A stretch of DNA of 55,177 nt from a virus. Its lineage: Duplodnaviria; Caudoviricetes. Under the pieces are notes generated by a model. That model was not told the origin of the DNA. It saw only the letters and a program-made list of their open reading frames with translations, and made no database searches. Every line of letters starts with the position of its first letter. Positions within the stretch are counted from its first letter, which is position 1. The DNA is taken from positions 1 through 55,177 of IMG/VR virus record IMGVR_UViG_3300034101_000800. One strand, given 5' to 3'. A program made the translations under genes and the position numbers. Positions 2,730 through 55,177 of the stretch are shown here, in pieces.

Positions 2730-3707
2730 TTATTTTGTTGAGTCTTCGTGAGTTCTTTTCATCAAAGCAGGCCAATTGGCTGTATCGTAATTGCCTGTGT
2801 CTACCGCTATGAAACTATTTGGCAACAGACCCTCTGAATATAGGTCCGTTAAGAACTTCTGTTCATTTACATTACTGTTAGGGTGATCGTAAAGAAGGTT
2901 ATCATTACAAACAGATGAAACATAGTTTGGAAAGTGTTCCTTATAGACAGACATCGCCGCCACTACTCCTTCGCGTGTTCCACCAAATAATCCAGCAGCA
3001 ATGCGGCCGCCCGACCACATAAACAAGCATTCACCTGGCCTATTTATCATCGTGTCGTGCATATTGGTGTAATATGATCCACTTGCTATTTGTAGGATAT
3101 CATCTACAGATTTACCACTTTGCAGTCCACCAGAAGTTGCATTGCTAGTCCACATAGCAGTATCAATCCAATACACTTGATCTGTGTTGCACTCTAAAGC
3201 ACTATCTAATAACAGATTTGGTTTTTCACAGGTTACTATAGTGTAGTATGGTGTTTGAACTTCTCGGGCGCAAATCGCTGTGTTAAATATACCCGTGTTG
3301 TGTTGTTTTTGCAAAAATCGTTCATGTGGTATCAATGCTGACGAATCTAAATCATAGTACTTAATTTTAGCGGTGTTCCATACCTCTTGAACAGATAGTC
3401 TGCAATCTACAGTCGGAAACACCCTATGTGGATCAGAAATGAATTGGTTTTCCTCCATTCGCAATATGTGTTCAGTATATGGGTCTGTCCATAACACAAG
3501 ATCACAGTTTGCTTCTTTCGCAATCTTGCCGAGACACATCAATCCAAAATTCCAACCATTTATAGAACCCCGTCCGTAAATAGGATTCGCTGTTTTTCCG
3601 GCTGTAGATAGTCTATAGTCGCCAATAGTTATCATGCCAGATTCTCTATAGGTTGGCAACAACCAAATAGCACTAACAATTGTTCCTTGTTTTTGGTTCA
3701 TATTCAT
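2730..3707 (-). CDS. HtrL/YibB (WlaTC)-like glycosyltransferase
   Basis: TIVSAIW N-terminal strand, YWID, IAAGLFGG and NEQ motifs, paralleling the N-terminal domain of 7281..8915. Confidence 0.6.
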   Translation of the reverse strand: MNMNQKQGTIVSAIWLLPTYRESGMITIGDYRLSTAGKTANPIYGRGSINGWNFGLMCLGKIAKEANCDLVLWTDPYTEHILRMEENQFISDPHRVFPTVDCRLSVQEVWNTAKIKYYDLDSSALIPHERFLQKQHNTGIFNTAICAREVQTPYYTIVTCEKPNLLLDSALECNTDQVYWIDTAMWTSNATSGGLQSGKSVDDILQIASGSYYTNMHDTMINRPGECLFMWSGGRIAAGLFGGTREGVVAAMSVYKEHFPNYVSSVCNDNLLYDHPNSNVNEQKFLTDLYSEGLLPNSFIAVDTGNYDTANWPALMKRTHEDSTK

Positions 3708-4327
3708 ATAAGTATATCTCTCTTTCCGAATAGGATATCTTCTTGAGATAGTTTACAATCGTGGTAATGCTTTTCAACAACATCAATCTGTACAAAACCA
3801 ACAGAGTTCAAATACTCAACAACATCTTTTTGTGTAGGACATCCAATGTTGTATTGATTGACATCAGTTTCAACTAGAACAAGTTTTGCGCTTTTCAGTA
3901 CAGCATTACATCCCTTTAAAATATCTAGTTCACTTCCTTGAGTATCGAGTTTTATCATATCAAATGCAACTGTATCTGCGCGATGTGCTGTAAGAATAGC
4001 GTCCATAGTATCAGTATCAACCAGTTCTACAGTCACATTATCTTCTGAAAAATAATGAGTGTTTTCAAGATACAACGAGTTTCCACTACATCTCGGTTCA
4101 TTTGTCCTTTTGTAAAACTTGCGTGTATCTTTTTTATCAGATGGACAAGCAATGATGTAATTCAATCCAACATTCTGCAATGAAAATTCACATTCTCTAT
4201 TTGCTTCTATGCATAGGATGTATATGTTGGGATGCTGCGTTAAAACTTCGAGGGCAAACTGTCCTACATTTGCTCCTATGTCAAGAACACTTTTGATGTT
4301 GTAGAGATCAATATAACTGTGGTTCAT
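3704..4327 (-). CDS. FkbM-family SAM-dependent methyltransferase
   Basis: VLDIGANVG, IEAN and IKLDTQGSEL motifs. Confidence 0.92.
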   Translation of the reverse strand: MNHSYIDLYNIKSVLDIGANVGQFALEVLTQHPNIYILCIEANRECEFSLQNVGLNYIIACPSDKKDTRKFYKRTNEPRCSGNSLYLENTHYFSEDNVTVELVDTDTMDAILTAHRADTVAFDMIKLDTQGSELDILKGCNAVLKSAKLVLVETDVNQYNIGCPTQKDVVEYLNSVGFVQIDVVEKHYHDCKLSQEDILFGKRDILI

Positions 4328-4358
4328 TTTACATTCTCATTTACTAGCGGCTCCAGTA

Positions 4359-4386
4359 AGTATACTACAGAAATCAGAAGAGGCGA
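4359..4386 (-). promoter_or_regulatory. Putative promoter TCGCCT-N16-TATACT upstream of the FkbM gene
   Basis: Same -10 as the other promoters; the spacer shares CTGATT...GTAG with the 2678-2705 promoter; weak -35. Confidence 0.45.
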
Positions 4387-4398
4387 GTCATGCTGATA

Positions 4399-5034
4399 TC
4401 AATCTTCTACTAGACGGTTAAAGTAGCCCATCACCGCCGCAGTACCGGGGCCCATGTAATCGTCGTTTGCTATCTCCATTTCAAACGAATCCGACCAAAA
4501 AAAACTCAAATCAGAAGTTTGTTCAATATCTCGTCCCTGAAAAATACGACTTGCAATGTCTGTGTATTCTACAAAAGGAAGTTTCGGATATGCAACGAAT
4601 CTATTTCCCTCTTTGTTAAAGATCCAACGATGGTGAATCCACCCAAAATACGATCCTTCATGCCTAGTCATCTCTTTGAATTTTGATGGAACCGCAATAT
4701 AGCCCCCATTAGCAATCTTGGGTAACAATTCACACACTAAGCCTGGATTACAAATGTCCTCTAATGTATGAGTACATATTGCGAAATCATATTTCCCATT
4801 TTTATCCACATCATCTAATATCTTGCTCCATAGTTCATAGGAACAAATGTTTCCCAAAAATGAAATTAGATTGCTATTCGGATGCTGATTTATATCAGCA
4901 TAGTGCGTTATGAAGGGAGATGACCACCCATACCCCGATGCACCAATGTCTATGACTCTTTTGTGTTTTGACTGTGAAAGATATTCATAGACCTCGCTTA
5001 CATATCCATTGCCATACTTAAAGTTGTGTATCAT
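4399..5034 (-). CDS. Class I SAM-dependent methyltransferase-like protein
   Basis: VIDIGASG, DFAICTHTLEDI, GYIAVP and HHRW motifs; start moved to ATG 5034 behind AAGGAG. Confidence 0.75.
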   Translation of the reverse strand: MIHNFKYGNGYVSEVYEYLSQSKHKRVIDIGASGYGWSSPFITHYADINQHPNSNLISFLGNICSYELWSKILDDVDKNGKYDFAICTHTLEDICNPGLVCELLPKIANGGYIAVPSKFKEMTRHEGSYFGWIHHRWIFNKEGNRFVAYPKLPFVEYTDIASRIFQGRDIEQTSDLSFFWSDSFEMEIANDDYMGPGTAAVMGYFNRLVED

Positions 5035-5089
5035 GTGTTTCTCTCCTTTGCGAGTCTCGCAGACCACTGCCTAGTGATTCTAATAGTTC

Positions 5090-5857
5090 TCATCGTGTCT
5101 CCAACTGCCTAATGTTGCAGGCTTCTGTAAGTTTGATTGTTTCTTCTCCCCATGGACCATTGTCGTGTATGACATACGCGGAGGCATCTATACCAATTGG
5201 ATTTCCAAGGTGATCTAAAACAGTCTTGTCTTTAGATAGATGGGTGCTGAAGAATAGTCTCTGATCCTCATCAAGCACTATGTCTGCTTTCTTAAGCAAA
5301 TACAGAGTTGCCCAAATACCCTGATCGTCCCCAGCGAAGGAGACATTAGGATCATCAGAATCAACCGCATACTGCAATGCAGAGATGATTGCAGTTGTTT
5401 TTCCTATCATGCATCCCGAATTCAAGTATTTGTATGAAGTAGAGGCTCCTATAGTTTCATACAGATGATTGTATGGTGTAGGCGGCCACAACCCCTTTTC
5501 TGCACACATCACAATGTCGTGTCCGTATTTCAAATACTCATCAAGCATCCCATCTACATTCTTGGTAAAGTTAGTGTCGGTTGCATCTAAAAACAAAGTG
5601 TACTCGTATTTCGATTGGATTTCAGTCAGGTACTCTAGATGCTTGTGTATCTTATACCATCGAAGTTTAGACATAAGAGACTCGTAGACATTATTTGACC
5701 ATGAGCATGGTGGAGAAACCCCATCACTATTGTAGCGTTGAACATGGATATCCGTTTGATATAGTCCCCTCTCAATACCAGTTTTGCAAAAACTAGGTTC
5801 ATAGGTGGATGGATAATCGAACAAAACTGTAGTGATAAGTAAACTCATGTTCATCAA
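5090..5857 (-). CDS. PLOD (procollagen lysyl hydroxylase) glycosyltransferase-domain-like protein
   Basis: LFLDATD, AEKGLWP, YKYLNSGCMIG, DDQ, LDEDQRLF and IHDNG match the PLOD1-3 N-terminal GT domain pattern. Confidence 0.8.
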   Translation of the reverse strand: MMNMSLLITTVLFDYPSTYEPSFCKTGIERGLYQTDIHVQRYNSDGVSPPCSWSNNVYESLMSKLRWYKIHKHLEYLTEIQSKYEYTLFLDATDTNFTKNVDGMLDEYLKYGHDIVMCAEKGLWPPTPYNHLYETIGASTSYKYLNSGCMIGKTTAIISALQYAVDSDDPNVSFAGDDQGIWATLYLLKKADIVLDEDQRLFFSTHLSKDKTVLDHLGNPIGIDASAYVIHDNGPWGEETIKLTEACNIRQLETR

Positions 5858-6627
5858 AACCTCAGTAGTCCTTCCGGCCGTGACGCGGGTGTAAACTTGT
5901 AATAGTCGTTCATAATTCTGAGGGGTATTAGAGAAGTTTTCATACCTGCAACCACAGTAGACATTCCTATCTCAACCCCCTCTGCAAATGCCCATATGTT
6001 CTCTGCTTGACTTTTATTGAAAAGTTCCATCCAGTTTGCACAGAACACAGACAACTTATCGTTATTCGCAAAAATCATATACTGTTCATTGCAAACATCA
6101 CCAGCATCATATCTGTCTGTTTCCATTAACCCATAGGCCGGTATCTTATGCCTCCAAAAACACCAATACGATGCTTCTGGTTGTTTTCCCGCACCAATAC
6201 CATGCGGTCTTTCAAAGAGAAAGTCTATGTTCTCCGTCTTCATCAGATTCAATACACGAAGCACACCGCTTTCTTCATAAAGGTCAGTAACTTCCCAATC
6301 TGCATCAACGAATATGATGTAATCAGAATCTTTGCATAGTTGATGGCTTTTTAAGATTGGTCGATGTTTAACATTGTAGTTAAACTGATCTGTGTAATAT
6401 CCATCTGGCATATTGAACAACCTGTAATCCGGCTCAATGATGTCAAAATGTATCTTCGGACTGATCTTATCTAAGTCTATGCCTTCTAGTGAAGATTCAT
6501 CCGTAGTTATCACAGAACACTTGTGATTGGAATACTTAGAAACCTTATCATGGAACAACAAAGCGGACGAGAGATACGTTTTACCTATGGCTACTGTGCA
6601 GTATGTGTATGTTAGTGCAGTCATCAA
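5854..6627 (-). CDS. Putative GT-A fold glycosyltransferase
   Basis: TVAIGKTY strand, FNYNVK, IIFVDAD (DxD) and a late EG; located in the GT cluster. Confidence 0.55.
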   Translation of the reverse strand: MMTALTYTYCTVAIGKTYLSSALLFHDKVSKYSNHKCSVITTDESSLEGIDLDKISPKIHFDIIEPDYRLFNMPDGYYTDQFNYNVKHRPILKSHQLCKDSDYIIFVDADWEVTDLYEESGVLRVLNLMKTENIDFLFERPHGIGAGKQPEASYWCFWRHKIPAYGLMETDRYDAGDVCNEQYMIFANNDKLSVFCANWMELFNKSQAENIWAFAEGVEIGMSTVVAGMKTSLIPLRIMNDYYKFTPASRPEGLLRF

Positions 6628-7268
6628 CCGCCTCCTTTTCTCTTACAAACCCACACAGCATTTGAAAACTCTTCATGCATGAAAGAAACAAGATTTTGTG
6701 CGATACAGGTTTCGGAAATATCATCATCAGTAATCTCACACCAGTTCCACAACTTGCCATTTATCTGTGTATCAAACACATCTATGTTGGGAGCATAATC
6801 ATGCGCAAGTATGATATCTCCAGGCTTCAAATGTTTTGCAGCACTATTAAACTCATGTTTCTTACTACCACCATCACACAACACAACAGTCGTTCCTTCT
6901 TGCTTGATGAAATCAATAGACTCTTGGCATATACCGCTTTCTAATACACCATTCTCCCATATAGACTTGGTTCTATAATCTGCAACTCCTTTAGCCTGCA
7001 AATCATCAAACCATGAATGTCGGGTAATGTCATATGTAACTATATCAAGAGGAAGGTCTATTTCTTGAGATATCTGTCTGAAGAATTCTGTTAGGCCTCC
7101 CAAAGCGGTTCCTATTTCTAGAATTCGCTTTGGTCTAACAGACTCTAACAAATTTGCAAATGCCAAGGGAGCATATTGATTTTGCTGTGCAGCAAGACCG
7201 TTTATAGTCATCAATCCTTGGTTTTCGTTTAGATTAGGTCCTACAATAGTGTATTTGTCAATGTTCAT
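6624..7268 (-). CDS. SAM-dependent methyltransferase (Methyltransf_24/CmcI-like)
   Basis: RPKRILEIGTALGG, LCDGG and LKPGDIILAHDY motifs. Confidence 0.8.
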   Translation of the reverse strand: MNIDKYTIVGPNLNENQGLMTINGLAAQQNQYAPLAFANLLESVRPKRILEIGTALGGLTEFFRQISQEIDLPLDIVTYDITRHSWFDDLQAKGVADYRTKSIWENGVLESGICQESIDFIKQEGTTVVLCDGGSKKHEFNSAAKHLKPGDIILAHDYAPNIDVFDTQINGKLWNWCEITDDDISETCIAQNLVSFMHEEFSNAVWVCKRKGGG

Positions 7269-7280
7269 TGCTATCCTTTC

Positions 7281-8915
7281 TTATAAGTTTTCTTTCCTCT
7301 GCTTACCATCATAGTGAAATGCTCTATTATGGTTGATAGGACTGCTTAGTAGACAACCTGCTCGGATCTTTCCTTCAGATATCAGTTGATGTACATGACT
7401 CATCCATGTTTGCTCATATGGGTATGCCCATTTGGTATCTAGAAACACCTTGCGATTGCCTTCTTTGTTGAACATTACAGGCCAATTACAATAGTGAAAG
7501 TCCCCAACGGCATACGACAATCCATCTACAGAACCAGTATGAGTTATCTTGGTTTTATTACAAACTCCTGCGATCTGTGGGCCTGGAAAGTACTGCTCTT
7601 TCTTGTCAGATGGAAGATTGTGCCAAGACCAATTAAGATGGTTGTCTCCAAAGAATTCTGTAAAACACAATTTCAGATAGTCAAGAGATTCCTTTTCCAT
7701 GATGCTCATACACTTATGAAACAATCTAGAATCGTATCGTATCATTCCGTTCCTACACGGCTCTTCTTCCTTGCCACAAAGCATCATATCATCTTCAAAG
7801 AAGACCATATACTGATGATCAGATTCTTCAAACATTTCTGCAGCAAGTTGTCTAGCACCACATATTCCTAGATTCTCTGGCTTTCTTATCTCCCGAAACG
7901 AATGCTTTTTGTAAAGTGCAGAGAACTCGTCATCGGTTGACATATCTGTAGAATTGTTGATTACATACTTGGAAGCGTGTCTGAAAGTAGAGTCGTGGTT
8001 GCGCGTGGAATCCAACCAAAGCCTGTACTGTGCAGGAATGTTAAAGCACACAGAGTATATACCAAGTTTACTGTCGGTTCTACTCTCTTTTGGTTTCTTG
8101 AGAATACTATCGATCCAAGGCGCTATGAGTCCATTCTCTTCAATCATCTCATATCTGCACAGATCTGGGTGATTGTATGTTAGCAGAGTAAAAATGCTTT
8201 CCTCTGTACCCATCAGTCCTCTACCAAGACTATCAGTCAAGTAAGAATAGTACAGGCCATTCAACTTGTTGATACTATCTTTGGTGCCTCCAAACAACCC
8301 ACCCCTAGCAACCCTACTAACAACTGTTCCTCTGGCGAAATCATTCATGGCAAGTGCATCAAACCCATGTATTTCCCCGTCCGCTTTGTACGGGAAACAC
8401 AGAAACAAAGCAGCACCGTCCATGTACTTTACTACTTCACTTTCAAACTTAGCACCAAGTAGACTGTCATGTACTGTGTTGACTATACCTCCATCAATCC
8501 ACAGAAAATACTTGGTGTTGTATGGGTTGAAAAGCGTTGCGTCATTCAACCAAAACATCTTGGACATCACCAATGGATTGTACAGATCCAATCTTGCTTG
8601 AGTACTTTCCGACAACCATCCCTTTTGGTTATACCAGGCAGGATTGGTACGGATATCCTGAATCTGTTTGTAGAACGGCATCTTCGTTCGTAGATCATCT
8701 GCAGTAACAAACTTCAGAGTAGTGTTGCTTCTGTCTCTATGCTGCCACACAAACTCTTCTAGATCAGGACTAATGTAAAGAAACATCGGGCAAGTAACCG
8801 ATTTCAGTAACTTCCCGAATGTTTCTTTGTAGTGATCAAATGAGCGGGAGAAAGATGTTCCCATCTCTCCACGCCCAATATTAATCAATCCGCTTACTAT
8901 AGTAAGTGTACTCAT
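7281..8915 (-). CDS. Two-domain glycosyltransferase: HtrL/YibB-like N-domain plus GT-A (GT2-like) C-domain
   Basis: N-domain TIVSGLINIGR, SKMFWL, FLWIDGG, RGGLFGG, GTEES; C-domain NLGICGARQ and FFEDD. Confidence 0.75.
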   Translation of the reverse strand: MSTLTIVSGLINIGRGEMGTSFSRSFDHYKETFGKLLKSVTCPMFLYISPDLEEFVWQHRDRSNTTLKFVTADDLRTKMPFYKQIQDIRTNPAWYNQKGWLSESTQARLDLYNPLVMSKMFWLNDATLFNPYNTKYFLWIDGGIVNTVHDSLLGAKFESEVVKYMDGAALFLCFPYKADGEIHGFDALAMNDFARGTVVSRVARGGLFGGTKDSINKLNGLYYSYLTDSLGRGLMGTEESIFTLLTYNHPDLCRYEMIEENGLIAPWIDSILKKPKESRTDSKLGIYSVCFNIPAQYRLWLDSTRNHDSTFRHASKYVINNSTDMSTDDEFSALYKKHSFREIRKPENLGICGARQLAAEMFEESDHQYMVFFEDDMMLCGKEEEPCRNGMIRYDSRLFHKCMSIMEKESLDYLKLCFTEFFGDNHLNWSWHNLPSDKKEQYFPGPQIAGVCNKTKITHTGSVDGLSYAVGDFHYCNWPVMFNKEGNRKVFLDTKWAYPYEQTWMSHVHQLISEGKIRAGCLLSSPINHNRAFHYDGKQRKENL

Positions 8916-8925
8916 GTGAGATTAC

Positions 8926-10266
8926 TTAGTAACCAAATGAAAGTGGAATCTCTACTTTGTTTAACCACCCCTTAGACTTACTATAAGGCCATAGTATGAA
9001 TTTAGATGGAGATGCTTCTTTATCGCATGTAAATGATATGGCAAATTTAGTGTACCCTTCTCGGAGAGAATCCGTTGGGGTTATACTTCTATCCCACATA
9101 AAAGGTTTAGTAGTAGGATTGAAGTCTTCTCTCCACAGAGTATCATTCTGTTCGTTGTGAACAGCACACACTACAAAATCTAAATCAGTTGCTTGATGAA
9201 ATTGTTTCTCATCCCACCGCAGTAGAGATGCATGACGAACCTTGTTGTCAGGCAAAATCTCGCATCTTTTCTTAAAGTCGAGTTGTGCGTACTCTTCGTA
9301 TTGCTGAAGAGTTCTTTCTTTACCCTTACCATATTTGCCAAATACGATATTTGGATCGTAATCCATTTCAAACAGTACACGATTTCTGTGGTGACAGATG
9401 TTGTTTCTGTCTACCCAGTTTAGACCATCAACAAGTTTTTCTTTGTTTTCGTCTACATGATCTACCCAATGCTTGTGGGTTCTGTACTCTCGGGTGTATT
9501 CGTGCCATATCACATTACGATGTGGCGTAAACAGATCATATCCGTGTGTATAGCATCTCATCGCCAGCGAAATTTCTTCACCGTGAAAGTAGTAATTTGG
9601 ATCATGTGGAACTTCTCTCACCATATCACCAAGGGTAAAAGCAAAATGTGCAGAAAAGAATCTACACGGAATGGGAGAGGTTAATTCAGCAAACTTTTTA
9701 CCATTACCCGCCCAAAAGGTTGTACCATCAATGTAATGTGGTTTAAAGAACACGCACCCCTCTGGAGTAAATCTATCAAATTCCAAGTACAGGGCATGAT
9801 TCTTCTCCAACATATCATCGTGTTGTCTTCCTCTGTGTTGCTCCGGGTTAAACGGAGTAACATATGAAGTTAGCAAAGGTTTGCGATGACCCTTTGCTTG
9901 TAACTCTTTAATCCACCCAATCAGAGTCTCGTCCCAATCTTGTGCAAATCGGTGATGAGAATCCAGTTGAAGAGTGTATTCTTCGCCATCATACAGTTGT
10001 TCTTGAATAGAATTACGGGCCCAACATGCTCCCTTACTTTGATTCCATGGCACATCAATGATCTTAAACCGGGGATCGTTTTTGAACTCTGCTAGTTCTG
10101 CGTCCCAAGGATCCGTTGGTTCATGTTGCCAACAAATTCCAAACCGCAGGCGTTCAGGATGCTTGGCCTTGTCTAAGCAATCCTTGATGGTTGGAACCAG
10201 TTCAGGATCCCGATACGCTGCAATCTGAATAAAAATACGGTTATCGTTTTCCATTTTCTTTGTCAT
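8926..10266 (-). CDS. GT60 / Gnt1-like polypeptide (Hyp/Thr) alpha-GlcNAc transferase
   Basis: IFIQIAAYRDPEL, SKGACWAR, YTLQLDSHHRF...WD, EVPHDP, FHGEEI and YTHGYDLFTP...WHEY are signature blocks of the Skp1 GlcNAc-transferase family. Confidence 0.88.
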   Translation of the reverse strand: MTKKMENDNRIFIQIAAYRDPELVPTIKDCLDKAKHPERLRFGICWQHEPTDPWDAELAEFKNDPRFKIIDVPWNQSKGACWARNSIQEQLYDGEEYTLQLDSHHRFAQDWDETLIGWIKELQAKGHRKPLLTSYVTPFNPEQHRGRQHDDMLEKNHALYLEFDRFTPEGCVFFKPHYIDGTTFWAGNGKKFAELTSPIPCRFFSAHFAFTLGDMVREVPHDPNYYFHGEEISLAMRCYTHGYDLFTPHRNVIWHEYTREYRTHKHWVDHVDENKEKLVDGLNWVDRNNICHHRNRVLFEMDYDPNIVFGKYGKGKERTLQQYEEYAQLDFKKRCEILPDNKVRHASLLRWDEKQFHQATDLDFVVCAVHNEQNDTLWREDFNPTTKPFMWDRSITPTDSLREGYTKFAISFTCDKEASPSKFILWPYSKSKGWLNKVEIPLSFGY

Positions 10267-10589
10267 TGTTTTGATCTCTCTTTCTCTTTCAAGTAAGCAC
10301 TCAACAGTACCATGTAGTTGATTACATCAACACAAGTATCCATAAAACTCTCATTGGAAACATGAAGTTTGCCAGACTCTACAAACGAACTAAGTCTACT
10401 CATCTTATCGGTAAGACGAACCAAGAACCCCTGCTCGGTGGAGCAGATGCCCATTGATTCTACTCTTGTGAAATTTGCGAACGGTTCTAGTCCGTCATTG
10501 CCTGCGTAGTCTCTGTTCTTCGCATCCATAAGTGTGCGGCCAGAGTCGCAGATTGATTTGTGCCATGCCAAAAGTTCATCACGGGTCAT
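10263..10589 (-). CDS. DUF1599 / nucleotide-modification-associated (Nmad1)-like helical protein
   Basis: KNRDYAG...PFANF, VRLTDKMSRL and ESFMDTCVDVINY pattern. Confidence 0.65.
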   Translation of the reverse strand: MTRDELLAWHKSICDSGRTLMDAKNRDYAGNDGLEPFANFTRVESMGICSTEQGFLVRLTDKMSRLSSFVESGKLHVSNESFMDTCVDVINYMVLLSAYLKEKERSKQ

Positions 10590-10595
10590 AATGTA

Positions 10596-11111: not shown

Positions 11112-11118
11112 GTCTCCA

Positions 11119-11793: not shown

Positions 11794-11804
11794 GTCACTC
11801 TCAC

Positions 11805-12230: not shown

Positions 12231-12277
12231 GCCAATGAGTATGCCTCATCTTTACAAATATGTAGGAACACGATAAC

Positions 12278-44558: not shown

Positions 44559-44581
44559 GGTATCTCCTTTAGTTATCACTT

Positions 44582-46931: not shown

Positions 46932-46946
46932 GGTTACTCCTTGTGA

Positions 46947-46954
46947 TATTTATG
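46947..46954 (-). promoter_or_regulatory. Late promoter CATAAATA
   Basis: Intergenic match to NATAAATA. Confidence 0.7.
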
Positions 46955-46959
46955 TAGCA

Positions 46960-49900
46960 TCATGCCGGTGCCGGTGGTGGAACTGATAAGGCGTCCAAGT
47001 CTACTGAACTCCCTACTCCGGTAGTAAATGCGGTTACTGGGAACAGGTTGATAGTCTCTAGAATGCCATCATACGCCTCTTGGCCACCGAGTGCAGTAAC
47101 AACATTCCACTCCGGCAAATACGTTCCAGTTTCAACCCACACCTTGACTGCATTGCTGTAGTGCAACTGGTAAGCAGACCATGCAAACTTGATAAATCTA
47201 TGCAAAGCAGGAGCGTACCATCCTTGACCTGTTCCTATACCGGCCATCGCACCCAACCGAGGATCGTTAGGATCGCTTGGATCTGCATTGTCTAGTAGTG
47301 CAACCCGATACAGTTTTCTCCACAAGTTTATTTCATTGTACAGCGCCTGCCGTTCAGAGGTATAACTTCTGCCATCAGTATGCCTGTATGGCCAGTTTAA
47401 TCCGTCCGGTGTGTTGGGGGTCTGGGGATGCGAAGCAATCCAGGCTGCGAGTGTTTGGTTGGATTCCAGCCCAAGTCTTGCAATTTCTTGACGCATTGCC
47501 AGTGGATACCTATCAATAACCGAATACCATCTAGCAACTTTAAGATCTTCTCCGTTCGAACCGGGATCGTCATACCCCCATCTAGTTCCATCAGGACCAG
47601 TTATACTGGTGGGGAAATCAGTAATGAGATACTGTGTGATATTTGGATTGGTTGCAGATACTGATGTCCACCAAGCGCCTTGTTGGACGGTTTGGCTTGC
47701 TGAAAGAGTTTGAGGGTACGCAGTAGTCCACCACATAACTGCACCCGGTTCTTTGATGCCTGCGTCGATAATTGGCTGGATTTGAAGGTCTATGAAATCT
47801 CGAACGCTGAGTACTTTGTCCCAACATCTCCAGTTTTCGTAACAGTCGCCTACTACTCCGCTAGGAGAGGTGGCCTCATTGCCTGCTCCGCGGCCTTGGC
47901 AGTCAGGATTACACATGGTGGTGAAGAACCAACCACGATACTCACTACCGCGTTCTATAGCATTACCTGCGCCCCAAAGCAGGGAACTAACTGCAGCGTA
48001 AACCGGTTTACCGGTACGCGCAGATATTTCTAGTCGATCTTTCAGGCACTCTGACCAAGATTGGGCAACCTGCTGCGCGCCGGCCCACGGAGTTTGCTTA
48101 AAGTACGGTGAGTAGTAAGGGCCTTGTGGGTTGTTGTTGTTTACGTTTCCATTCACGCCGGTGCCTATAACTGCGGAACTGTAAAGAGTATACAGAGTGG
48201 GCTGTATGTAATCAGATGCATCTATAATGCTTTGCACTCGATCAAGCGAATACGTTTTAAGGTCATTTCGGAGATCTTGATCAAGATTGATGTAGTAATT
48301 GCCTATACTATTGCCGAGGCCGTCGCGTAAGAGCGGCGAGCCCCACAGATCTACAGTTGGGAATCCATAGTAACCTGTTGGTTTACCTGCAAATCCCATA
48401 TCTGCTTCCGGTGCGGTTCTCATGTAGTTTGCAAGAGCAACCAAGTTGTCTACCATTGTGCGGTAGGTAACCTCAATGTTTTCTCCGCTGGTTCCGCTTA
48501 ACTGATGATAGATGTAGTCCTTTGATTCAGGAAGCAGAGGATCTATCCGCACAGCCTCCGGGCAGTTGTTTCTGTCTGGACATCCTCTTTGCTCCCAGTC
48601 TGTATAGTTGCTCCAATAGTTAAAGATTGATTGAGGATATAAAACTTCTCCAGTTTTAAACTCAAAGTCCAAGTTTGTAATCGTATACTCGTCTATACCT
48701 CTGGCATCCTGGAAATTGGAGTCTGATCGTTGCAGGCCCCATCCCCAACGGCCACGAACACTTCGATTGCACTTCGACCTACTCGCTTCAGAGGTTACTG
48801 ACCATTGCAAATCCGTTGTGTTGGCTGACCAAACTGCACCGGTGCCGTCGGTGCTGGTGGGCCCGTTAGGATCACATGGTCTACCAAGAGCATCAAATCT
48901 GGGACCAGTAATCATAATCCAGTAGTTGTTACGAGGATCTTCTCCACCAGGCTCACCTAAAGCGTATGGCCATTGTTCTACATTATTTTCGTACAGGAAG
49001 AAGCACATGCCTCCGTACATGGAACCCAAAACCTGTTCGTATTGCCAGTCTAGTTCCTTTGACGGGATTTCTCCGTAGAACAAAGTAAACTGCGGCTGTG
49101 GCGGAAGTGGTGGACAAAGATCGGGAATAAGCGTACTACTACATGTGCGTCCAACGCCTTCAAACTGGTATACACTCGATTGCGCCCCGAGCGCAACAGC
49201 AAAACATTGTTGCGATGAGGAAACATCCGTACAAAGCGTTTGTTGTGTTGGAGTTCCTTGGTTCAAGCAATAGAAACAGGCTCCAACAGTTGCCGGTGTC
49301 CCTGTTGGTGTGGGAGTGGGTGTGCTTGTAGGTGTAAGTGTTGGTGTGTTTGTGGGTGTTTGTGTCTGTGTAGGCGTCTGTGTTGGTGTTTGTGTAGGCG
49401 TCTGTGTAGGAGTTTCTGTGGGTGTGGGTGTGTTTGTAGGCGTTTGTGTAGGTGTTTGGGTCTGTGTTGGCGTCTGTGTTGGCGTCTGTGTTGGGGTTTC
49501 TGTGGGTGTTTGTGTCTGTGTGGGCGTCTGTGTTGGCGTCTGTGTGGGTGTTTCCGCCGGAGTACCACCTGGCGTCTGTGTAGGCGTCTGTGTAGGCGTC
49601 TGTGTAGGCGTCTGTGTAGGAGTTTCTGTGGGTGTGGGTGTGTTTGTGGGCGTTTGTGTGGGTGAATGTGTGGATGTTGGTGTTACAGATGCAGAGGCAC
49701 CAGGCGTCTGCGTGGGTGTCTGTGTTGGTGTTTGTGTAGGTGTGTTCGTGGGCGTTTGTGTTGGACTACCAGTTGGTGTTTGCGTGGGTGTTGGTGTTGT
49801 AGTCGGAGTTTGTGTTTGCGATAGCGTTTCTGTTACAGACGGGGTTGGAGTCTGTGTAGCAGAGACTGTATGAGATGGTGTTACTGTTGGTGTAACTGTT

Positions 49901-52900
49901 CTAGTAACTGTCGTGGTGGGGGTTACGGTAACAGAAGGCGTTACTGTTACTGTTGGTGTGGGATCCGGTACGACTTCTTCTTCGGCGTCTGTGCCACACG
50001 CAAACGTATTTTGCCAGTTAGGTATACATTGATACGCACTACGGCATGCAGTTTCTTCATCACATATCGTGGTGGTTCTGCCTATTGCTCCAGTTGTGGT
50101 GATTTCTGAATTGTTATAGAGAGGTAGTTCTGAATCTGCAATCCATGAGAATCTAAGTCTACGCAATCCACCAGTTCCGTCTAGTTTCTTTATGCCGGTT
50201 TCAACTGTAAATTTACGAGAATCCGCTTGCTCAACATTTATATCAAACACCGAAGTTGCGCCTTGTTCTGGCGTGATGAAAATGTTTGGGTTGTTTCTCT
50301 TTGTTCGTTTTAGTTGAACCAGTTTAAACATGCCTGGGTTTAGACTCACAGATTCCATAGAAACTGTCATGGTACTGGTTCCAGTTTCATAGAACCTCTG
50401 ACACTTTTCTAGTGTCTTGTACTGGTCTTCGTACACATAGTCGTGTGCTTCATTTCCTTCTTCCAATTGTACATTGGCAAGACTTACTACTCCTGTATAA
50501 ACAAAGTCATCCAAACTGTGCAAACACGGAGAAGATTTAATCACTTCCGGTGCATTAGATGGAGTTACGCTTGGGGTTGGAGTATGTGTAGGAGTTGGTG
50601 TATGTGAAGGAGTTTGTGTAGGCGTCTTTGTAGGCGTCTTTGTAGGCGTCTGTGTGGGTGTCTGTGTCTTTGTAGGCGTCTGCGTAGGTGTCTGTGTAGG
50701 TGTGTTTGTGGGCGTGCTTGTGGGTGTTTGTGTTGGTGTAGGTGTCTTTGTAGGCGTCTTTGTGGGTGTGTGTGTTGGTGTAGGTGTCTTTGTAGGCGTC
50801 TTTGTGGGTGTCTGTGTAGGAGTTTGGGTTGGTGTAGGTGTCTGTGTAGGCGTCTGTGTAGGTGTTTCGGTTGGTGTCTGCGTAGGCGTCTGTGTAGGAG
50901 TTTGGGTTGGTGTCTGTGTAAGTGTTTCGGTTGGTGTCTGCGTAGGTGTCTGTGTAGGTGTTTCGGTGGGTGTCTGCGTTGGTGTCTGTGTCTGCGAAGG
51001 CGTCTGTGTGGGTGTCTGTGTGGGTGTTTCCGCCGGAGTACCGTTCGGTGTCCGCGAAGGCGTCTGTGTAGGTGTTTCGGTGGGTGTCTGCGTTGGTGTC
51101 TGTGTGGGTGTCTGTGTCTGCGAAGGCGTCTGTGTGGGTGTCTGTGTCTGTGAAGGCGTCTGTGTGGGTGTGTTTGTAGGCGTCTGTGTAGGCGTCTGTG
51201 TAGGAGTTTGGGTTGGTGTAGGTGTCTGTGTAGGAGTTTGGGTTGGTGTAGGCGTCTGTGTAGGTGTTTGGGTTGGTGTCTGTGTAGGTGTTTGGGTTGG
51301 TGTCTGTGTGGGTGTCTGTGTCTGTGTGGGTGTTTGTGTTGGTGTCTGTGTCTGCGAAGGCGTCTGTGTTGGAGTTTCTGTCGGTGTCTGTGATGGCGTT
51401 TGTGTTGGTGTCTGTGTCTGCGAAGGCGTCTGTGTTGGAGTTTCTGTCGGTGTTTGTGATGGCGTTTGTGTTGGTGTCTGTGTCTGCGAAGGCGTCTGTG
51501 TAGGTGTTTCGGTGGGTGTCTGCGTTGGTGTCTGTGTTGGTGTCTGTGTCTGCGAAGGCGTCTGTGTAGGTGTTTCGGTGGGTGTCTGCGTTGGTGTCTG
51601 TGTGGGTGTCTGTGTCTGCGAAGGCGTCTGTGTGGGTGTTTGAGTTGGTGTTTCTGCAGGCGTCTGCGTGGGTGTCTGTGTGGGTGTGTTTGTAGGCGTC
51701 TGTGTAGGTGTCTGTGTAGCCGTCTGTGAAGGCGTCTGCGAAGGCGTCTGCGTGGGTGTGTTTGTAGGCGTCTGTGTAGGCGTCTGTGTAGGCGTCTGTG
51801 TGGGTGTTTGAGTTGGTGTCTGTGTCTGCGAAGGCGTCTGTGTAGGTGTTTGGGTTGGTGTCTGTGTAGGCGTCTGTGTAGGAGTTTGGGTTGGTGTAGG
51901 TGTCTGTGTAGGTGTTTGGGTTGGTGTCTGTGTAGGCGTCTGTGTGGGTGTCTGTGTCTGCGAAGGCGTCTGTGTGGGAGTTTCTGTGGGTGTCTGTGTG
52001 GGTGTGTTTGTAGGCGTCTGTGTCTGTGTAGGTGTTTGGGTTGGTGTCTGTGTGGGTGTTTGGGTTGGTGTCTGTGTCTGTGAAGGCGTCTGCGAAGGCG
52101 TCTGCGTGGGTGTGTTTGTAGGCGTCTGTGATGGCGTTTGTGTTGGTGTCTGTGTCTGTGAAGGCGTCTGTGTGGGTGTTTGAGTTGGTGTCTGTGTGGG
52201 TGTTTGAGTTGGTGTCTGTGTCTGCGTGGGTGTGTTTGTAGGCGTCTGTGTAGGCGTCTGTGTGGGAGTTTCTGTGGGTGTGTGTGTGGGTGTCTGTGTA
52301 GGTGTCTGTGTAGGTGTAGGTGTTTCTGTGGGCGTATGTGAAGGCGTTTGTGTCTGAGAGGGTGTTTGTGTTGGAGTTGGTGTTTGAGTCGGACATATAT
52401 CGGTGACATCAGCACATGTACTACCTACACCGTACCACCTCCAGCAGTTCGGAAACGCACCCGACGCTAACGCCGCGCCGAGGCATCCGCCTTCGCCCTG
52501 CGTAATGGTGCATTCTTCCACTTGCTGCGGTGTACCACAGAATTTACAAACCCAACAGGCTCCGAATCCACCCGTTGGTGTAATAGTAGGAGTGGGTGTC
52601 TGTGTGGGAGTTTCTGTGGGTGTCTGTGTGGGTGTGGGAGTTTCGGTGGGTGTCTGTGTGGGTGTCTGTGTGGGAGTTTCTGTGGGTGTCTGTGTAGGTG
52701 TCTGTGTAGGTGTCTGTGTAGGTGTCTGTGTTGGTGTCTGTGTCTGTGAAGGCGTCTGTGTGGGTGTTTGAGTTGGTGTCTGTGATGGCGTTTGTGTTGG
52801 TGTCTGTGTCTGTGAAGGCGTCTGTGTTGGAGTTTCTGTCGGTGTTTGTGATGGCGTTTGTGTTGGTGTCTGTGTCTGTGAAGGCGTCTGTGTAGGCGTG

Positions 52901-55176
52901 TTTGTGGGTGTGTTTGTGGGTGTGTTTGTGGGTGTCTGCGTAGGCGTCTGTGTGGGTGTCTGTGAGGGTGTACTAGCCGGTGTACCGCCTGGTGTCTTTG
53001 AGGGTGTTTGTGTAGGTGTGTTTGTAGGCGTCTGTGTGTTTGTAGGTGTCTGCGTGGGTGTGTTTGTAGGCGTCTGCGTAGGCGTCTTTGTAGGCGTCTG
53101 TGTGTTTGTAGGTGTCTTTGTAGGCGTCTGTGTGTTTGTAGGTGTCTGCGTAGGTGTCTGCGTAGGTGTCTTTGTAGGCGTCTTTGTAGGCGTCTGTGTG
53201 TTTGTAGGTGTCTGCGTAGGCGTCTGCGTAGGTGTCTGCGTAGGCGTCTTTGTAGGCGTCTGTGTGTTTGTAGGTGTCTGCGTAGGCGTCTTTGTAGGTG
53301 TCTGCGTAGGTGTCTTTGTGGGTGTCTGTGTGGGTGTAGGTGTCTTTGTGGGTGTCTTTGTGGGTGTCTGTGTGGGTGTAGGTGTCTTTGTGGGTGTCTT
53401 TGTGGGTGTCTGTGTGGGTGTAGGTGTAGCACTTTGTACTACCGTACTGCAAGAACTGCTACCGGTTTCACATGGGAAACCAAGTACCGCTGCTATGTTC
53501 TGCGGAGTCATGTTTTGTAGCCAAGACCAATCGGTACAACTGCAGGATATGGTTGGATCATCTGGATCACATATATCGCAGCCGGCCGCGGTACTTACAA
53601 TTGAGCCCACAAGGCAGCATCTTAGACGCTCAGGGTCCGGATCAAATGGATTTGCACTATTAAGCCAGTCTGTGGGACACCCCTGCTCCGCGAAGTCACT
53701 ACCAAGCATCGATATACTACCGCTGAGCCCGCCGCAAGTCCCTGGCGAGGCCGCGCACGGCGTGCAGATGCCGCTCACGCATCGCTTATAAACCACCCCG
53801 GCGCCGAGTGGTGCAGACTCATATCCACAGCAGTTTGCATCCGCCCGTATTTCGTCTACACAAATCCTGCACGGCTGGCCATTGCCCGGGCACACGCAGG
53901 TGTAGTCTACCGTAATCCTACACTCGCCCACACCAAGTCCAATTGGAATATTTTCTTCCAAACTGTCTACACCTAGATCTAAATCTAACGCTGCGCTTCT
54001 AAGAGCAATAGAGGCAGGAGAACAATCAGATCCGCGTGACATCTGGGTCCAGAAATACACACCCAAGTAATCGTCCCCGTTGTTGCCAATCACCTTTCCG
54101 TCAATGTCTGGAATTTCTACACTAATGTCGTATCGCTTCCAAGAACGATCCAACTGTATAGAAATTAGCGGAGAGAACACAGGAGAACTGGTTCCTAGTA
54201 TTGGGTCGTAATCAAAAGAATCGCAGCCAGAAATACCACTAGTTTCTGGCGACTCTATTTCAATTCCGTGTAGTTCGCTACACAGGCCAACAGTAGATGC
54301 GTTTGCACAGGAAGCAAACGTGAGATCTTCAGCAGGATCTTCAGCAAAGAAACCAATACATGTACTTTGTATTAACGATTCATCCATTTCTACAACAGCA
54401 ACACCACATCCATTACACGGGAACGGAGTTGGTGAAGGTGTGGGTGGAACGGAAGCACACGGAGTTCTCGATGGTGTTGGAGTGGGAGTAGATGTGCTTG
54501 TAGGTGTCTGTGTAGGCGTCTGTGTAGGCGTCTGTGTGGGTGTTTGAGTTGGTGTCTGTGTCTGTGTAGGCGTCTGTGTGGGTGTTTGAGTTGGTGTTTC
54601 TGCAGGCGTCTGTGAAGGCGTTTGTGTAGGTGTCTGCGTGGGCGTGGGAGTTTCGGTGGGTGTGTTTGTGGGTGTTTGGGTTGGTGTTTCTGCAGGCGTC
54701 TGCGTGGGTGTCTGTGTGGGTGTGGGAGTTTCTGCCGGTGTCTGCGAAGGCGTCTGTGTAGGCGTCTGTGTGGGAGTTTCTGTCGGTGTCTGCGTGGGCG
54801 TCTGTGTGGGTGTGGGTGTACTAGTTGGCGTCTGCGAAGGCGTCTGTGTAGGCGTCTGTGTGGGAGTTTCTGCCGGTGTACCGGCTGGTGTCCGTGAAGG
54901 CGTCTGTGTAGGTGTCTGTGTAGCCGTCTGTGTAGGTGTCTGCGTAGGCGTCTGTGTAGGTGTCTGTGTAGCCGTCTGTGTAGGTGTCTGCGTAGGCGTC
55001 TGTGTAGGAGTTTGTGTAGGCGTCTGTGTAGGAGTTTGTGTAGGTGTCTGTGTAGGTGTCTGTGTAGGTGTCTGTGTAGGTGTACTGGCTGGTGTACCTG
55101 TTGGTGTACTGGCTGGTGTACCTGTTGGTGTACTGGCTGGTGTACCTGTTGGTGTACTGGCTGGTGTACCTGTTGG
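46960..55176 (-). CDS. Giant mucin-like (TPTQ-repeat) putative virion fibre protein, >2,738 aa, 5' end beyond the window
   Basis: The frame stays open upstream of the track's ATG 54387 (...[34 protein letters not shown]) to the window edge; four T-P-T-x tracts, Cys-rich modules and globular domains. Confidence 0.9.
49295..49970 (-). repeat. Degenerate 12-bp coding repeat tract (TPTQ/TPTV)
   Basis: GT-rich periodic sequence on the plus strand. Confidence 0.9.
50560..52390 (-). repeat. Longest degenerate 12-bp coding repeat tract ([16 protein letters not shown])
   Basis: About 1.8 kb of GGCGTCTGTGTA-type units with higher-order duplications. Confidence 0.95.
52570..53430 (-). repeat. Degenerate 12-bp coding repeat tract ([12 protein letters not shown])
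   Basis: Directly visible periodicity. Confidence 0.95.
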
Positions 55177-55177
55177 T
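54470..55177 (-). repeat. TPTQ tract ending in a perfect 24-bp repeat (TPTGTPAS) at the window edge
   Basis: GGTGTACTGGCTGGTGTACCTGTT repeated four times at about 55079-55174. Confidence 0.95.

Follow-up and report, generated by a model that had tools for sequence, protein, structure and literature searches.

The capsid of chlorovirus PBCV-1 and the fibrils of mimivirus are decorated by virus-encoded cytoplasmic machinery that glycosylates virion surface proteins, with methylated sugars among the attached residues. In mycobacteriophages, structural proteins are reportedly modified by phage-encoded glycosyltransferases, as described in a 2023 study. Genome announcements allude to mycobacteriophage virion glycosylation (e.g. 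PMC11256854). Virions of the Xanthomonas jumbo phage XacN1 are reported to contain "at least two glycoproteins", which its authors suggest are made by phage glycosyltransferases, citing PBCV-1 as a case of virion glycosylation; the available excerpts of that paper leave the glycoproteins unnamed and draw no link to Thr/Pro tracts (PMC5852040). The enzymes that start mucin-type O-glycans in protists belong to GT60, a family of polypeptide α-GlcNAc-transferases (PMC8724618).

The window analyzed here, the whole 55,177-nucleotide stretch of IMG/VR record IMGVR_UViG_3300034101_000800, is about one third of the genome of an uncultured T4-like myovirus. Because a giant Thr-Pro fibre and a GT60-family enzyme are encoded together, the phage probably coats its own fibre with sugar. 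A phage mucin-type O-glycosylation system is thus the probable reading of the GT60 island and the Thr/Pro fibre, held with moderate confidence; a literature search found no paper on a GT60/mucin-like fibre system of this kind in phages.

The genes of the glycan island (2730-11793) all lie on the minus strand, in an early replication block that runs from regA to gp43. The gene at 8926-10266 encodes a soluble candidate polypeptide GlcNAc-transferase of 446 aa with a "QLDSHH" motif, which matches PF11397 (GlcNAc, GT60) with an E-value of 1.1e-69 (236 bits, the cut-off being 21) and the glycosyltransferase profile phrog_24687 with 3.7e-117; IMG/VR holds 162 relatives of it. A 544-aa protein (7281-8915) combines an HtrL_YibB domain (4.4e-14) with a GT2-like C-terminal half carrying the DxD motif "FFEDDM". 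The product of 5090-5857 is a GT_PLOD-type glycosyltransferase (Pfam, 3.5e-14) related to the collagen LH3 glycosyltransferase domain, the human form of which it matches in the PDB (6wfv and related entries, 4.8e-7). Two further glycosyltransferase candidates are a GT25-like protein of 224 aa (11119-11793; phrog_24091, 4.7e-28), for which the Atlas-feature likeness to GT25 clusters (0.97) is a lead only, and a second HtrL-like (WlaTC/HtrL glycosyltransferase-like) protein of 325 aa (2730-3707; Atlas features 0.97, structural TM 0.60-0.64 to HtrL clusters). Methyltransferases are represented by an FkbM-family member (3704-4327; FkbM 2.6e-11, TIGR01444 2.7e-14) and by a candidate sugar O-methyltransferase (6624-7268), whose weak matches to CmcI (5.6e-4) and rhamnosyl O-methyltransferase NF045824 (1e-5) all fall under the curated cut-offs. 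By motif, a 257-aa protein (5854-6627) is GT-A-like ("IIFVDADWE", with a "DAD" motif) and a 222-aa protein (4399-5067) is methyltransferase-like (SAM-binding-like "VIDIGASGYG"); profile searches against Pfam, PHROG and further family profiles gave no family match for either. The island interval also holds the dUTPase gene next to GT60 (10596-11111) and a gene for a 108-aa protein (10263-10589), neither of them a glycosyltransferase or methyltransferase gene.

The island reported in the initial annotation is therefore real: it comprises nine genes for soluble glycan enzymes, among which the GT60 assignment is clear (PF11397, 1e-69). Its count of six glycosyltransferase-like and three methyltransferase genes is plausible because Pfam, Atlas-feature, structural and motif evidence can be combined over the nine genes, whereas at the Pfam level three glycosyltransferases and one to two methyltransferases are supported. 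Among the families it had named, PF11397, GT_PLOD and HtrL_YibB were recovered as Pfam matches, while the likeness to GT25 came from Atlas features. A search for membrane segments found none in any of the nine enzymes, as would be expected if they modify a virion protein in the cytoplasm.

The fibre gene (46960..55177, minus strand) lies 35 kb from GT60, and the two loci are unlinked in this clade. It is truncated at its 5' end by the contig end: the open reading frame at 46960-55176 runs off the window end and leaves 2,738 aa visible, compared with about 3,264 aa in a full orthologue. Its composition includes 722 Thr, 420 Pro and 287 Gln, with TPTQ occurring 161 times, and the earlier claim of more than 1,000 residues of T-P-T-x repeats holds, as about 1,243 residues lie in Thr/Pro-rich sequence (21-aa windows of at least 60% Thr/Pro). 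Globular domains conserved in relatives confirm the reading frame. The DNA repeats of the gene are imperfect (58-83% matches), and the Thr/Pro tracts are therefore not an artefact of perfect repeats; a 24-nt unit at the contig end (55075-55177, within tract 1) is present in 4.3 copies at 98% identity.

Globular modules alternate with Thr/Pro tracts. Tract 1 (aa 1-243; 54448-55176), built of TGTPAS and then TPTQ units, precedes a Cys-rich globular domain with 27 Cys (aa 244-587; 53416-54447), which is kept in three orthologues (L115, L119 and L120) and weakly matches positions 909-957 of the phrog_4492 profile (5.1e-6). Tract 2 (aa 588-863; 52588-53415) leads to a small Cys knot with 8 Cys (aa 864-934; 52375-52587), similar to a module in L119, and then to tract 3, the longest at about 600 aa (aa 935-1533; 50578-52374), with tandem arrays of 12-, 30- and 66-nt periods and 58-72% matches. 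The middle globular domain (aa 1534-1744; 49945-50577) matches positions 961-1096 of the phrog_4492 tail fiber profile (2.1e-12) and is kept in all four orthologues. It is followed by tract 4, Thr/Val/Pro-rich and then Thr/Pro-rich (aa 1745-1958; 49303-49944), a second small Cys knot resembling the first in sequence (aa 1959-2028; 49093-49302), and a C-terminal domain of 710 aa (46963-49092).

The initial annotation had placed this protein next to the neck genes. Judged by homology, it is instead a member of a tail-fibre family, downstream of baseplate and fibre genes, and not a neck protein: the full-length orthologue in G048 begins with a tail-collar domain (Collar, 2.6e-9; phrog_4492 tail fiber, 1.1e-16) and is located behind baseplate genes. 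Three ORFs (610, 174 and 129 aa) separate the fibre gene from gp13. The first of these, directly downstream (45099-46931), found no match in Pfam and PHROG searches; an ORF of 592-626 aa occupies the same position in L115, L117, L118, L119 and L120, and the fibre orthologues in L115, L118, L119 and L120 likewise lie upstream of this gene of about 600 aa and gp13.

The last 710 aa of the fibre have a predicted fold resembling that of GH56 hyaluronidases (Z 16). In the AlphaFold2 model (pLDDT 68.8, pTM 0.77) the domain forms a GH56-like barrel; the top six Foldseek matches are all GH56, with VIA Z scores of 15.6-16.0 against 9.1 for the next family and an rmsd of 4.2-4.5 Å over 274-288 aligned residues. 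Among GH56 enzymes, bee-venom Api m 2, human HYAL1 and PH-20 provide the best match to the predicted fold. The phage domain has large inserts and twice their length, and a search detected no sequence similarity to GH56. It shares with these enzymes a D-x-E triplet at a strand end ("DFE", domain residues 142-144), a likeness by position and not residue by residue, which 7 of 11 aligned relatives retain and 4 have lost; Api m 2 uses Asp111/Glu113 (PMC4619011). Only nine clusters among 1.84 billion representatives match the domain.

Conservation within the clade is limited to GT60 and the HtrL-like gene, along with the GT25-like gene; the remaining island is hypervariable. GT60 (76-85% identity) and the GT25-like gene (56-89%) occur in all nine close relatives, and the HtrL/DxD gene is complete in eight; in the ninth, G001, the contig end interrupts it. 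Of the same nine, only G003 and L010 have counterparts of the GT_PLOD gene and of 5854-6627, and close copies of 6624-7268 (60% and 88% identity), to which G001 and L007 show weak 30% matches at a different site. The genes at 4399-5067, 3704-4327 and 2730-3707 are each unique to the window. GT60 occurs together with a Thr/Pro fibre in both clade contigs that span the two loci, namely the window and G001.

The co-occurrence of GT60 with TP-repeat proteins was found reciprocally and against a random-contig control. Among 47 GT60-carrying viral records, drawn from 80 GT60 loci by sequence size before any result, 22 contain a TPTx tract (pattern TPTxTPTxTPT, back-translated), including all six that are at least 90% complete; 25 lack one by this strict pattern, two of them 86-88% complete (G043 and G046). 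Conversely, PF11397 is encoded in 16 of 47 records selected only for a (TPTx)x4 tract. Neither GT60 nor the tract was found in 37 random viral contigs of at least 19.6 kb each, and the reversed TPTx pattern had no match in all 47+37 records. Fisher tests against the random contigs, in which relatedness is ignored, gave p 2.4e-5 for GT60 and 1.6e-7 for the tract, and a length-matched comparison gave 6/32 versus 0/34 (p 0.01). The association is also positional: a Pro-Thr-tract gene lies directly upstream of GT60 in 8 of 43 locus clusters, compared with 24 of 875 genes at other neighbouring positions (p 5e-5). In 14 of the 43 clusters one of the first three genes downstream of GT60 is an HtrL gene, and a recurrent cassette after GT60 comprises HtrL, GT25, GT34, GT10, GT7C and PLOD glycosyltransferases together with methyl-, carbamoyl- and sulfo-transferases.

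These counts bear on an unlikely but best-surviving alternative, in which the Thr/Pro tracts carry no sugar and serve as flexible or extended spacers, the pairing with GT60 stems only from the frequency of both in one ecological or host-linked set of large environmental phages, and GT60 acts on a different protein or small molecule. Secreted bacterial enzymes often have Pro-Thr linkers. GT60 is missing from 31 of the 47 tract-bearing records, including 8 of 12 near-complete ones, so TP tracts exist without it, and the linkers of orthologous fibres differ, being Thr/Ala-rich in L119, VTPS in L118 and nearly absent in L120, which suggests that they may be plain spacers. The co-occurrence controls ignore relatedness. 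Against spacers alone, the enrichment is sharply positional, with tracts at 19% directly upstream of GT60 but 0-5% at the second gene upstream and the first to third downstream, and few of the eight upstream proteins are related to each other (PA14, P-domain and Cys-knot modules). The pairing spans capsid lineages, a gp23-like protein being encoded in 13 of 27 large GT60 records and not in the other 14, which reduces habitat or host confounding and does not remove it. Glycoproteins are, moreover, reported in XacN1 virions (PMC5852040).

Under the favoured reading, mucin-type O-glycosylation of the fibre, the soluble GT60 would act in the cytoplasm during fibre synthesis and prime Thr hydroxyls of the tracts with a HexNAc, probably GlcNAc donated by UDP-GlcNAc. 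The conserved HtrL/GT2-like and GT25-like enzymes would then lengthen the glycan, the strain-variable GT_PLOD-like, second HtrL-like and DxD proteins could lengthen it more, and methyltransferases would cap it. A search for a prolyl hydroxylase, relevant only if the acceptor were hydroxyproline, found none. The substrate would be a fibre exceeding 3,000 aa, its globular modules (the N-terminal collar/fibre part, the Cys-rich domain, both Cys knots, the fibre-type middle domain and the GH56-like head) joined by Thr-Pro-Thr-x spacers that total about 1,250 residues. We infer that the outcome may be a long, extended, protease-resistant mucin-like tether, possibly a stiff bottle-brush, that keeps a head which cleaves or binds glycans far away from the baseplate. 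The O-glycosylation proposal of the initial annotation thus draws support from co-occurrence, adjacency, soluble enzymes and the XacN1 glycoproteins, while its neck placement fell and most of the island proved hypervariable.

It is less likely still that the island enzymes act during infection on a glycan of the host surface (LPS core, O-antigen or exopolysaccharide), as a means, for instance, of excluding superinfecting phages, with the Thr/Pro tracts as unrelated plain linkers. T4-like cyanophages carry LPS-type gene islands, HtrL_YibB and GT25 are families named for LPS biosynthesis, and the island lies among early genes and varies between close relatives like surface-glycan islands. However, it contains no membrane protein, lipid-carrier priming transferase, flippase, polymerase or exporter, its nine enzymes being soluble, and remodeling of host glycans leaves the reciprocal co-occurrence and the upstream adjacency unexplained. 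Every characterised GT60 enzyme named in the available excerpts of one source acts on polypeptides (PMC8724618). Hypermodification of phage DNA with glycosylated bases that evade restriction, as in T-even phages, is very improbable: the replication/nucleotide-metabolism setting beside a dUTPase/dCTP-deaminase-like gene, a weak DUF1599 "nucleotide modification associated" match (E 0.003) and the DNA glycosylation of T4-like phages, along with the poly-arabinosylated cytosines now known (PMC13326640), speak for it, but a search of four clade records, all fragments, found no thymidylate-synthase or hydroxymethylase homologue, a term search of the accessible part of PMC13326640 returned no GT60, PF11397 or HtrL, and several GT-A enzymes, O-methyltransferases and the Pro-Thr link fit a protein glycan better.

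Compared with the GT60 enzymes of Dictyostelium and Trypanosoma cruzi, the phage enzyme falls by sequence into their Pfam/CAZy family (PF11397, 236 bits), likewise has a soluble catalytic domain and no ricin-like lectin domain, and has a candidate acceptor that is Thr/Pro-rich. It differs in a C-terminal stretch of about 110 aa without family assignment, and its putative activity, being encoded by a bacteriophage, would take place in the bacterial cytoplasm on a virion protein. Mycobacteriophages are likewise said to direct their own glycosyltransferases to structural proteins; they are siphoviruses and not T4-like, infect actinobacterial hosts, use other glycosyltransferase families on capsid and tail-tube targets, and have no giant mucin-like repeat. 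The giant viruses also apply their own cytoplasmic glycosylation machinery to virion surface proteins, but they infect eukaryotes, rely on other glycosyltransferase families, and carry N-linked capsid glycans or fibril proteins that are not Thr/Pro repeats. The closest cultured GT60 carrier is XacN1, which encodes a GT60 (ORF334, 41% identity) and a GT9 (ORF328) and has TPTx tracts in three large ORFs (ORF236, ORF370 and ORF372). It is a Rak2-like jumbo phage in which GT60 is followed by a carbamoyltransferase gene, unlike the HtrL gene that follows GT60 here.

The Thr/Pro tracts of a giant tail-fibre-like protein encoded at 46960-55177 (minus strand) are, on balance, probably O-glycosylated in the cytoplasm by a pathway that a GT60 enzyme would lead, giving an extended, protected tether. 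The giant ORF overruns the window end, leaving 2,738 aa visible, among them 722 Thr, 420 Pro and 287 Gln. The initial annotation had placed more than 1,000 residues of T-P-T-x repeats in this protein, and the count bears it out, with 1,243 residues in windows of at least 60% T/P and 161 TPTQ units. The Thr/Pro-rich residues are split into four tracts of ~214 to 600 aa each, separated by a Cys-rich domain (27 Cys), two mutually similar small Cys knots and a middle domain, and the protein closes with a C-terminal domain of ~710 aa. The predicted protein has a long tandem Ser/Thr/Pro-rich domain as in mucin-type O-glycoproteins, and a Thr/Pro tract of this kind is found in no other ORF of the window. 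The DNA repeats under the tracts are degenerate (58-83% matches) apart from one, a 24-nt unit repeated 4.3 times at 98% identity at 55075-55177, the very end of the contig, where it probably broke the assembly. The related giant ORFs at four other loci (L115, L118, L119 and L120) are all cut at their 5′ ends by contig ends, and such fibre genes systematically break short-read assemblies.

The gene content around these loci, as read from the sequence, is that of a T4-like myovirus. The window is one entire IMG/VR viral record (55,177 bp, without terminal repeats), is estimated at 31% of a genome and carries all its genes on the minus strand. The replication set comprises DNA polymerase gp43, regA, clamp loader gp62/gp44, clamp gp45, RNase H, gp46/gp47, gp55, UvsY and a helicase, and the virion set comprises the major capsid protein, scaffold, prohead protease, portal, tube, sheath, terminase, gp15, gp14 and gp13. 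By capsid protein the nearest cultured phages are cyanomyoviruses, at only ~52% identity. A block of four genes at 17500-21897 (minus strand), flanked by gp46 and the RNase H region and kept in relatives at 57-95% identity, encodes a glutamine-synthetase-like protein (407 aa, weak match), a protein of 543 aa that ends in an N6/N4 DNA methylase part, a PLP-dependent enzyme of 318 aa and a DNA methylase of 221 aa, and could be a DNA base modification module. A GroES/Cpn10-like gene (12648-12935, minus strand; 95 aa, 3.9e-7) lies between the clamp-loader genes gp44 and gp62. The portal protein (34825-37005, minus strand; 726 aa) is covered at residues 6-505 by the portal PHROG profile of 528 positions, which leaves out ~220 C-terminal residues. 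The T4 late-promoter motif TATAAATA has one match in the window, equal to chance expectation.

The fibre protein was traced in other phages through gp13, for which 13 related loci (74-98% identical) were found. At every gp13-linked locus that reaches far enough, a giant ORF stands upstream of the same ~600-aa gene and is cut by the contig end. Direct searches of viral contigs with the C-terminal 746 aa of the fibre, and with its 610-aa neighbour, found no relatives. One contig that extends further upstream (G048) holds a full-length orthologue of ~3,264 aa, whose N-terminal 600 aa match a tail-collar domain (2.6e-9) and the tail-fibre family phrog_4492 (1.1e-16). This orthologue is the last of three collar-domain genes and follows gp5-, gp6-, wedge- and gp8-like baseplate genes. 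The N-terminus of the window protein lies beyond the window; its middle domain (2.1e-12) and Cys-rich domain (5.1e-6) match phrog_4492. Because of these matches, together with the collar domain and baseplate-adjacent position of the orthologue, the giant protein belongs to a predicted tail-fibre family. The protein had been set beside the neck genes; its nearness to them stands, whereas an association with the neck does not, being a matter of T4-like gene order only.

Across the orthologues the globular modules are conserved and the linkers are not. Linker units are TPAE, TPTQ and TPLSTN in L115 and VTPS in L118, L119 has a Thr/Ala-rich linker of ~1,200 aa (TATATPTATASA), and L120 has nearly none. 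In the L120 protein (L120:2-1099) the first half of the Cys-rich domain is joined straight to the middle domain (window 53416-54447 and 49945-50577, respectively), and these two parts match contiguous positions of phrog_4492 (909-957 and 961-1096). The Cys-rich, Thr/Pro and knot segments, ~1,150 aa together, may have been inserted into a fibre module. An AF2 model of the fused L120 region has a pLDDT of 33.7.

The last 710 aa of the fibre form a rare family, with 9 clusters among 1.84 billion representative proteins. An AlphaFold2 model of this tip, built on 11 aligned sequences, has middling confidence (pLDDT 68.8, pTM 0.77), and GH56 hyaluronidases take all six top places among its Foldseek matches in the PDB (E 5.6e-4 to 1.2e-2). 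A second structural aligner placed the tip on four GH56 entries at Z 15.6-16.0 and rmsd 4.2-4.5 Å, with 274-288 of 314-324 residues aligned; PH-20 scored 12.1, HYAL1 11.2 and the next family 9.1. A DFE triplet occupies tip residues 142-144, following strand 136-142, and 7 of 11 relatives retain it. Bee-venom hyaluronidase Api m 2 uses Asp111 and Glu113 (extracts of PMC4619011), of which the triplet is a possible counterpart. Neither Glyco_hydro_56 nor any other Pfam family matched the 11 tip-family members at E up to 1, and no GH56 chain in the PDB was found by the tip sequence or the tip-alignment profile. Since no sequence-level link to GH56 was found, the tip is a GH56-like predicted fold and not a member of the GH56 family. 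An active tip would make a phage depolymerase of a new type.

The putative glycan island (2730-11793, minus strand) is laid out, in the direction of transcription, as regA, a GT25-like candidate (224 aa), dUTPase, a 108-aa gene, GT60 (8926-10266), HtrL_YibB (its second half DxD-bearing), a weak methyltransferase, a DxD protein of 257 aa, GT_PLOD, a SAM-motif protein of 222 aa, FkbM methyltransferase and another HtrL-like gene; downstream lie a lysozyme-like gene and gp43. The lysozyme-like gene (2270-2671, minus strand), which separates the island from gp43, encodes a destabilase/SLT-type protein of 133 aa; its N-terminus is strongly hydrophobic (hydropathy 2.08 at residue 1) and resembles that of a signal-anchor-release endolysin. 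The GT60 product is a predicted member of CAZy GT60, matching PF11397 at E 1.1e-69 and 236 bits (cut-off 21) over profile positions 98-351 and an N-terminal stretch. Within the Pfam-matched region falls 'QLDSHH', an Asp-x-His/Asp motif of GT-A type, which we take, by analogy with GT27, to be the metal site of the family. Further profile matches are HtrL_YibB at 4.4e-14, GT_PLOD at 3.5e-14 (with the human LH3 GT domain at 4.8e-7) and FkbM at 2.6e-11, which makes GT60, HtrL, GT_PLOD and FkbM the clear family calls of the island on profile evidence. The profile searches that the initial annotation had proposed for PF11397, PLOD GT and HtrL_YibB returned the expected families, and its tally of six GT and three methyltransferase genes is plausible, with clear profile support for these four. 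Of the other five, one is the weak methyltransferase match, the GT25-like and second HtrL-like calls come from Atlas look-alikes and are leads only, and the 257-aa DxD protein and the 222-aa protein with the SAM-type motif carry candidate names from motifs alone. PDB sequence searches with GT60 (best E 0.29) and the HtrL protein (no match) gave nothing usable. In passages of PMC8724618, GT60 is described as a protist family of polypeptide α-GlcNAc-transferases that initiate mucin-type O-glycans.

Only five island genes are present in every one of nine close relatives of the window: the GT25-like gene, dUTPase, GT60, HtrL and the 108-aa gene. The three island genes at 5090-7268 have close copies in two of the nine, and the three at 2730-5067 are present in the window only. 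By this pattern, the island consists of a conserved core and a hypervariable tail. A wider scan covered the three genes downstream of GT60 (127 proteins, 43 clusters). HtrL_YibB is found in 14 of the 43 clusters (fused twice to FkbM and once to GT25), GT25 in 7, GT34/DUF273 in 6, GT10 fucosyltransferase-like and FkbM proteins in 4 each, Glyco_transf_7C, carbamoyltransferase and a second GT60 in 3 each, GT_PLOD in 2 and sulfotransferase in 1; nucleotide-sugar enzymes are found in two clusters. An initiator followed by changing elongating and capping enzymes is the look of a protein O-glycan pathway, and the window island is one instance. The carbamoyltransferases, of NodU/CmcH type, come directly after GT60 in three clusters (L016, L072 and L081) and in the cultured jumbo phages XacN1 (L137, 219791-223508) and Xoo-sp13 (L138), which suggests that the glycans of these lineages are carbamoylated.

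The pairing of GT60 genes with long TP-repeat proteins, which had been proposed as a check, was borne out from both sides. The window GT60 has 162 relatives in IMG/VR, and 47 records, from the best 80 of the 162, were picked for contig size before any result. A back-translated TPTxTPTxTPT pattern occurs in 22 of these 47 and in all six with a completeness of at least 90%; read in reverse, the TPTx pattern had no match in the GT60-side records. From the tract side, the viral collection was scanned for (TPTx)x4, which gave at least 137 stretches, and, among the matches listed, 47 contigs of at least 23 kb were picked for the tract only. PF11397 is encoded in 16 of these 47, and in several of them the tract directly adjoins the GT60 gene. 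The control was 37 contigs of at least 19.6 kb sampled by an arbitrary 14-mer, used in place of an MCP-based baseline set, in which contigs only a few kb long carried most of the 80 loci. Neither GT60 nor the tract was found in any of these 37, giving Fisher p values of 2.4e-5 and 1.6e-7, uncorrected for kinship and habitat. With both sets limited to 110 kb, the counts were 6 of 32 versus 0 of 34 (p 0.01). In 27 large GT60 records a gp23-like capsid protein is present in 13 and absent from 14, and the pairing is seen in both groups.

An alternative, which we consider unlikely, is that the Thr/Pro tracts are unglycosylated spacers and that the co-occurrence arises from shared ancestry or habitat. 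Several observations count against the glycosylation reading: 25 of the 47 GT60 records, two of them 86-88% complete, have no strict tract pattern; 31 of the 47 tract-picked records, including 8 of 12 near-complete ones, have no GT60; and orthologous fibres have other linkers or nearly none. In this clade GT60 also lies in an early replication block beside dUTPase, 35 kb from the fibre gene, a separation already recognised at the outset. Against shared ancestry stands the position of the tracts in other GT60 phages. With GT60 loci grouped at 80% identity, a Pro-Thr tract was present in the immediate upstream neighbour of GT60 (same strand, 40-110 bp off) in 8 of 43 clusters, compared with 24 of 875 other neighbouring genes (p 5e-5). 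The upstream Pro-Thr proteins are mostly mutually unrelated, with a PA14 domain, two P-domains and Cys-knot repeats among them, so a single inherited gene pair cannot explain the pattern. Their matches to phrog_15511 fall on the repeat itself and are uninformative. One upstream protein (L026:8524-9957, plus strand) has four near-identical Cys-knot modules ('C..GN.C...GSPVGTCCDGL.C') joined by Pro-Thr/Ala linkers, and a weak Pfam Toxin_7 match below cut-off. In another GT60 phage (L077:4955-6487, minus strand), a gp13-like head-tail adaptor (phrog_211, 4.1e-25) has a ~111-aa Pro-Thr/Ser-rich N-terminal extension and is, by this match, a second kind of virion protein with a Pro-Thr tract.

Somewhat less probable again is that the island remodels host surface glycans. 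The HtrL and GT25 families bear LPS-related names, which counts against the glycosylation reading, and host enzymes could supply the membrane steps of LPS, O-antigen or EPS synthesis. A lipid-linked surface-polysaccharide cluster would have a priming transferase bound to the membrane, together with a flippase, polymerase or exporter; none of these is in the island, whose nine enzymes have no membrane-like segment (top 19-residue hydropathy 1.21). Glycosylation of DNA bases by the island is very improbable, and no thymidylate-synthase-like PF00303 protein (ThyA homologue) was found in the viral records G000, G001, G003 and G048, each 24-33% of a genome.

In the favoured glycosylation of the fibre, a soluble GT60 would begin in the cytoplasm by attaching HexNAc to Thr residues of the Thr/Pro tracts; lengthening of the glycan would fall to the variable GTs and to the conserved HtrL/GT2-like and GT25-like enzymes, and capping to the methyltransferases. 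The outcome would be an extended, protected tether carrying the GH56-like head. Mucin domains span ~0.25 nm per residue, so 1,250 residues would give a tether of ~300 nm. Prolyl 4-hydroxylase (PF13640), of the Skp1-type hydroxyproline pathway, was not found in the fragmentary records G000, G001, G003 and G048. More tentatively, and with considerable doubt, T4-like and other large environmental phages may run mucin-type O-glycosylation in the bacterial cytoplasm, in which a GT60 initiator and a fast-evolving elongating and capping set would make glycan bottle-brushes of the Thr/Pro spacers in fibres and adhesins. Here the tether would be longer than the tail and end in a GH56-like, glycan-cleaving head, and close relatives would differ in their sugar coat through the strain-variable part of the island.

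If this holds, an enzyme family characterised so far in protists only would let phages of several lineages make their own mucin-like glycoproteins. This would be a new class of virion modification with bearing on host recognition, particle stability, resistance to proteases or grazers, and adhesion to mucus or exopolymers, and it would account for the Thr/Pro low-complexity tracts at which many metagenomic phage assemblies break. Glycobiology would also gain an initiator of mucin-type O-glycosylation that is soluble, cytoplasmic and easy to express, and natural cassettes of elongating enzymes with it.

Giant viruses and mycobacteriophages are known to glycosylate their virion proteins with enzymes of their own. 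Searches by title and abstract, with subscription journals outside their coverage, found no published GT60-led mucin-type system acting on phage Thr/Pro tracts. The cultured Xanthomonas jumbo phage XacN1 encodes a homologue, ORF334, 41% identical to the window GT60, and TPTx pattern matches number 7 in XacN1 (within ORF236, ORF370 and ORF372) and 6 in Xoo-sp13. Excerpts of the XacN1 paper report 'at least two glycoproteins' in its virions, without protein names in those excerpts, and its authors suggest phage GTs as their makers (PMC5852040). These virion glycoproteins and the GT60/tract co-occurrence lend indirect support to dense O-glycans on the tracts. New in the window are the T4-like carrier with unlinked loci, the very long tract, the island with its conserved core and variable tail, the turnover of linkers between orthologues, and the GH56-like predicted tip.
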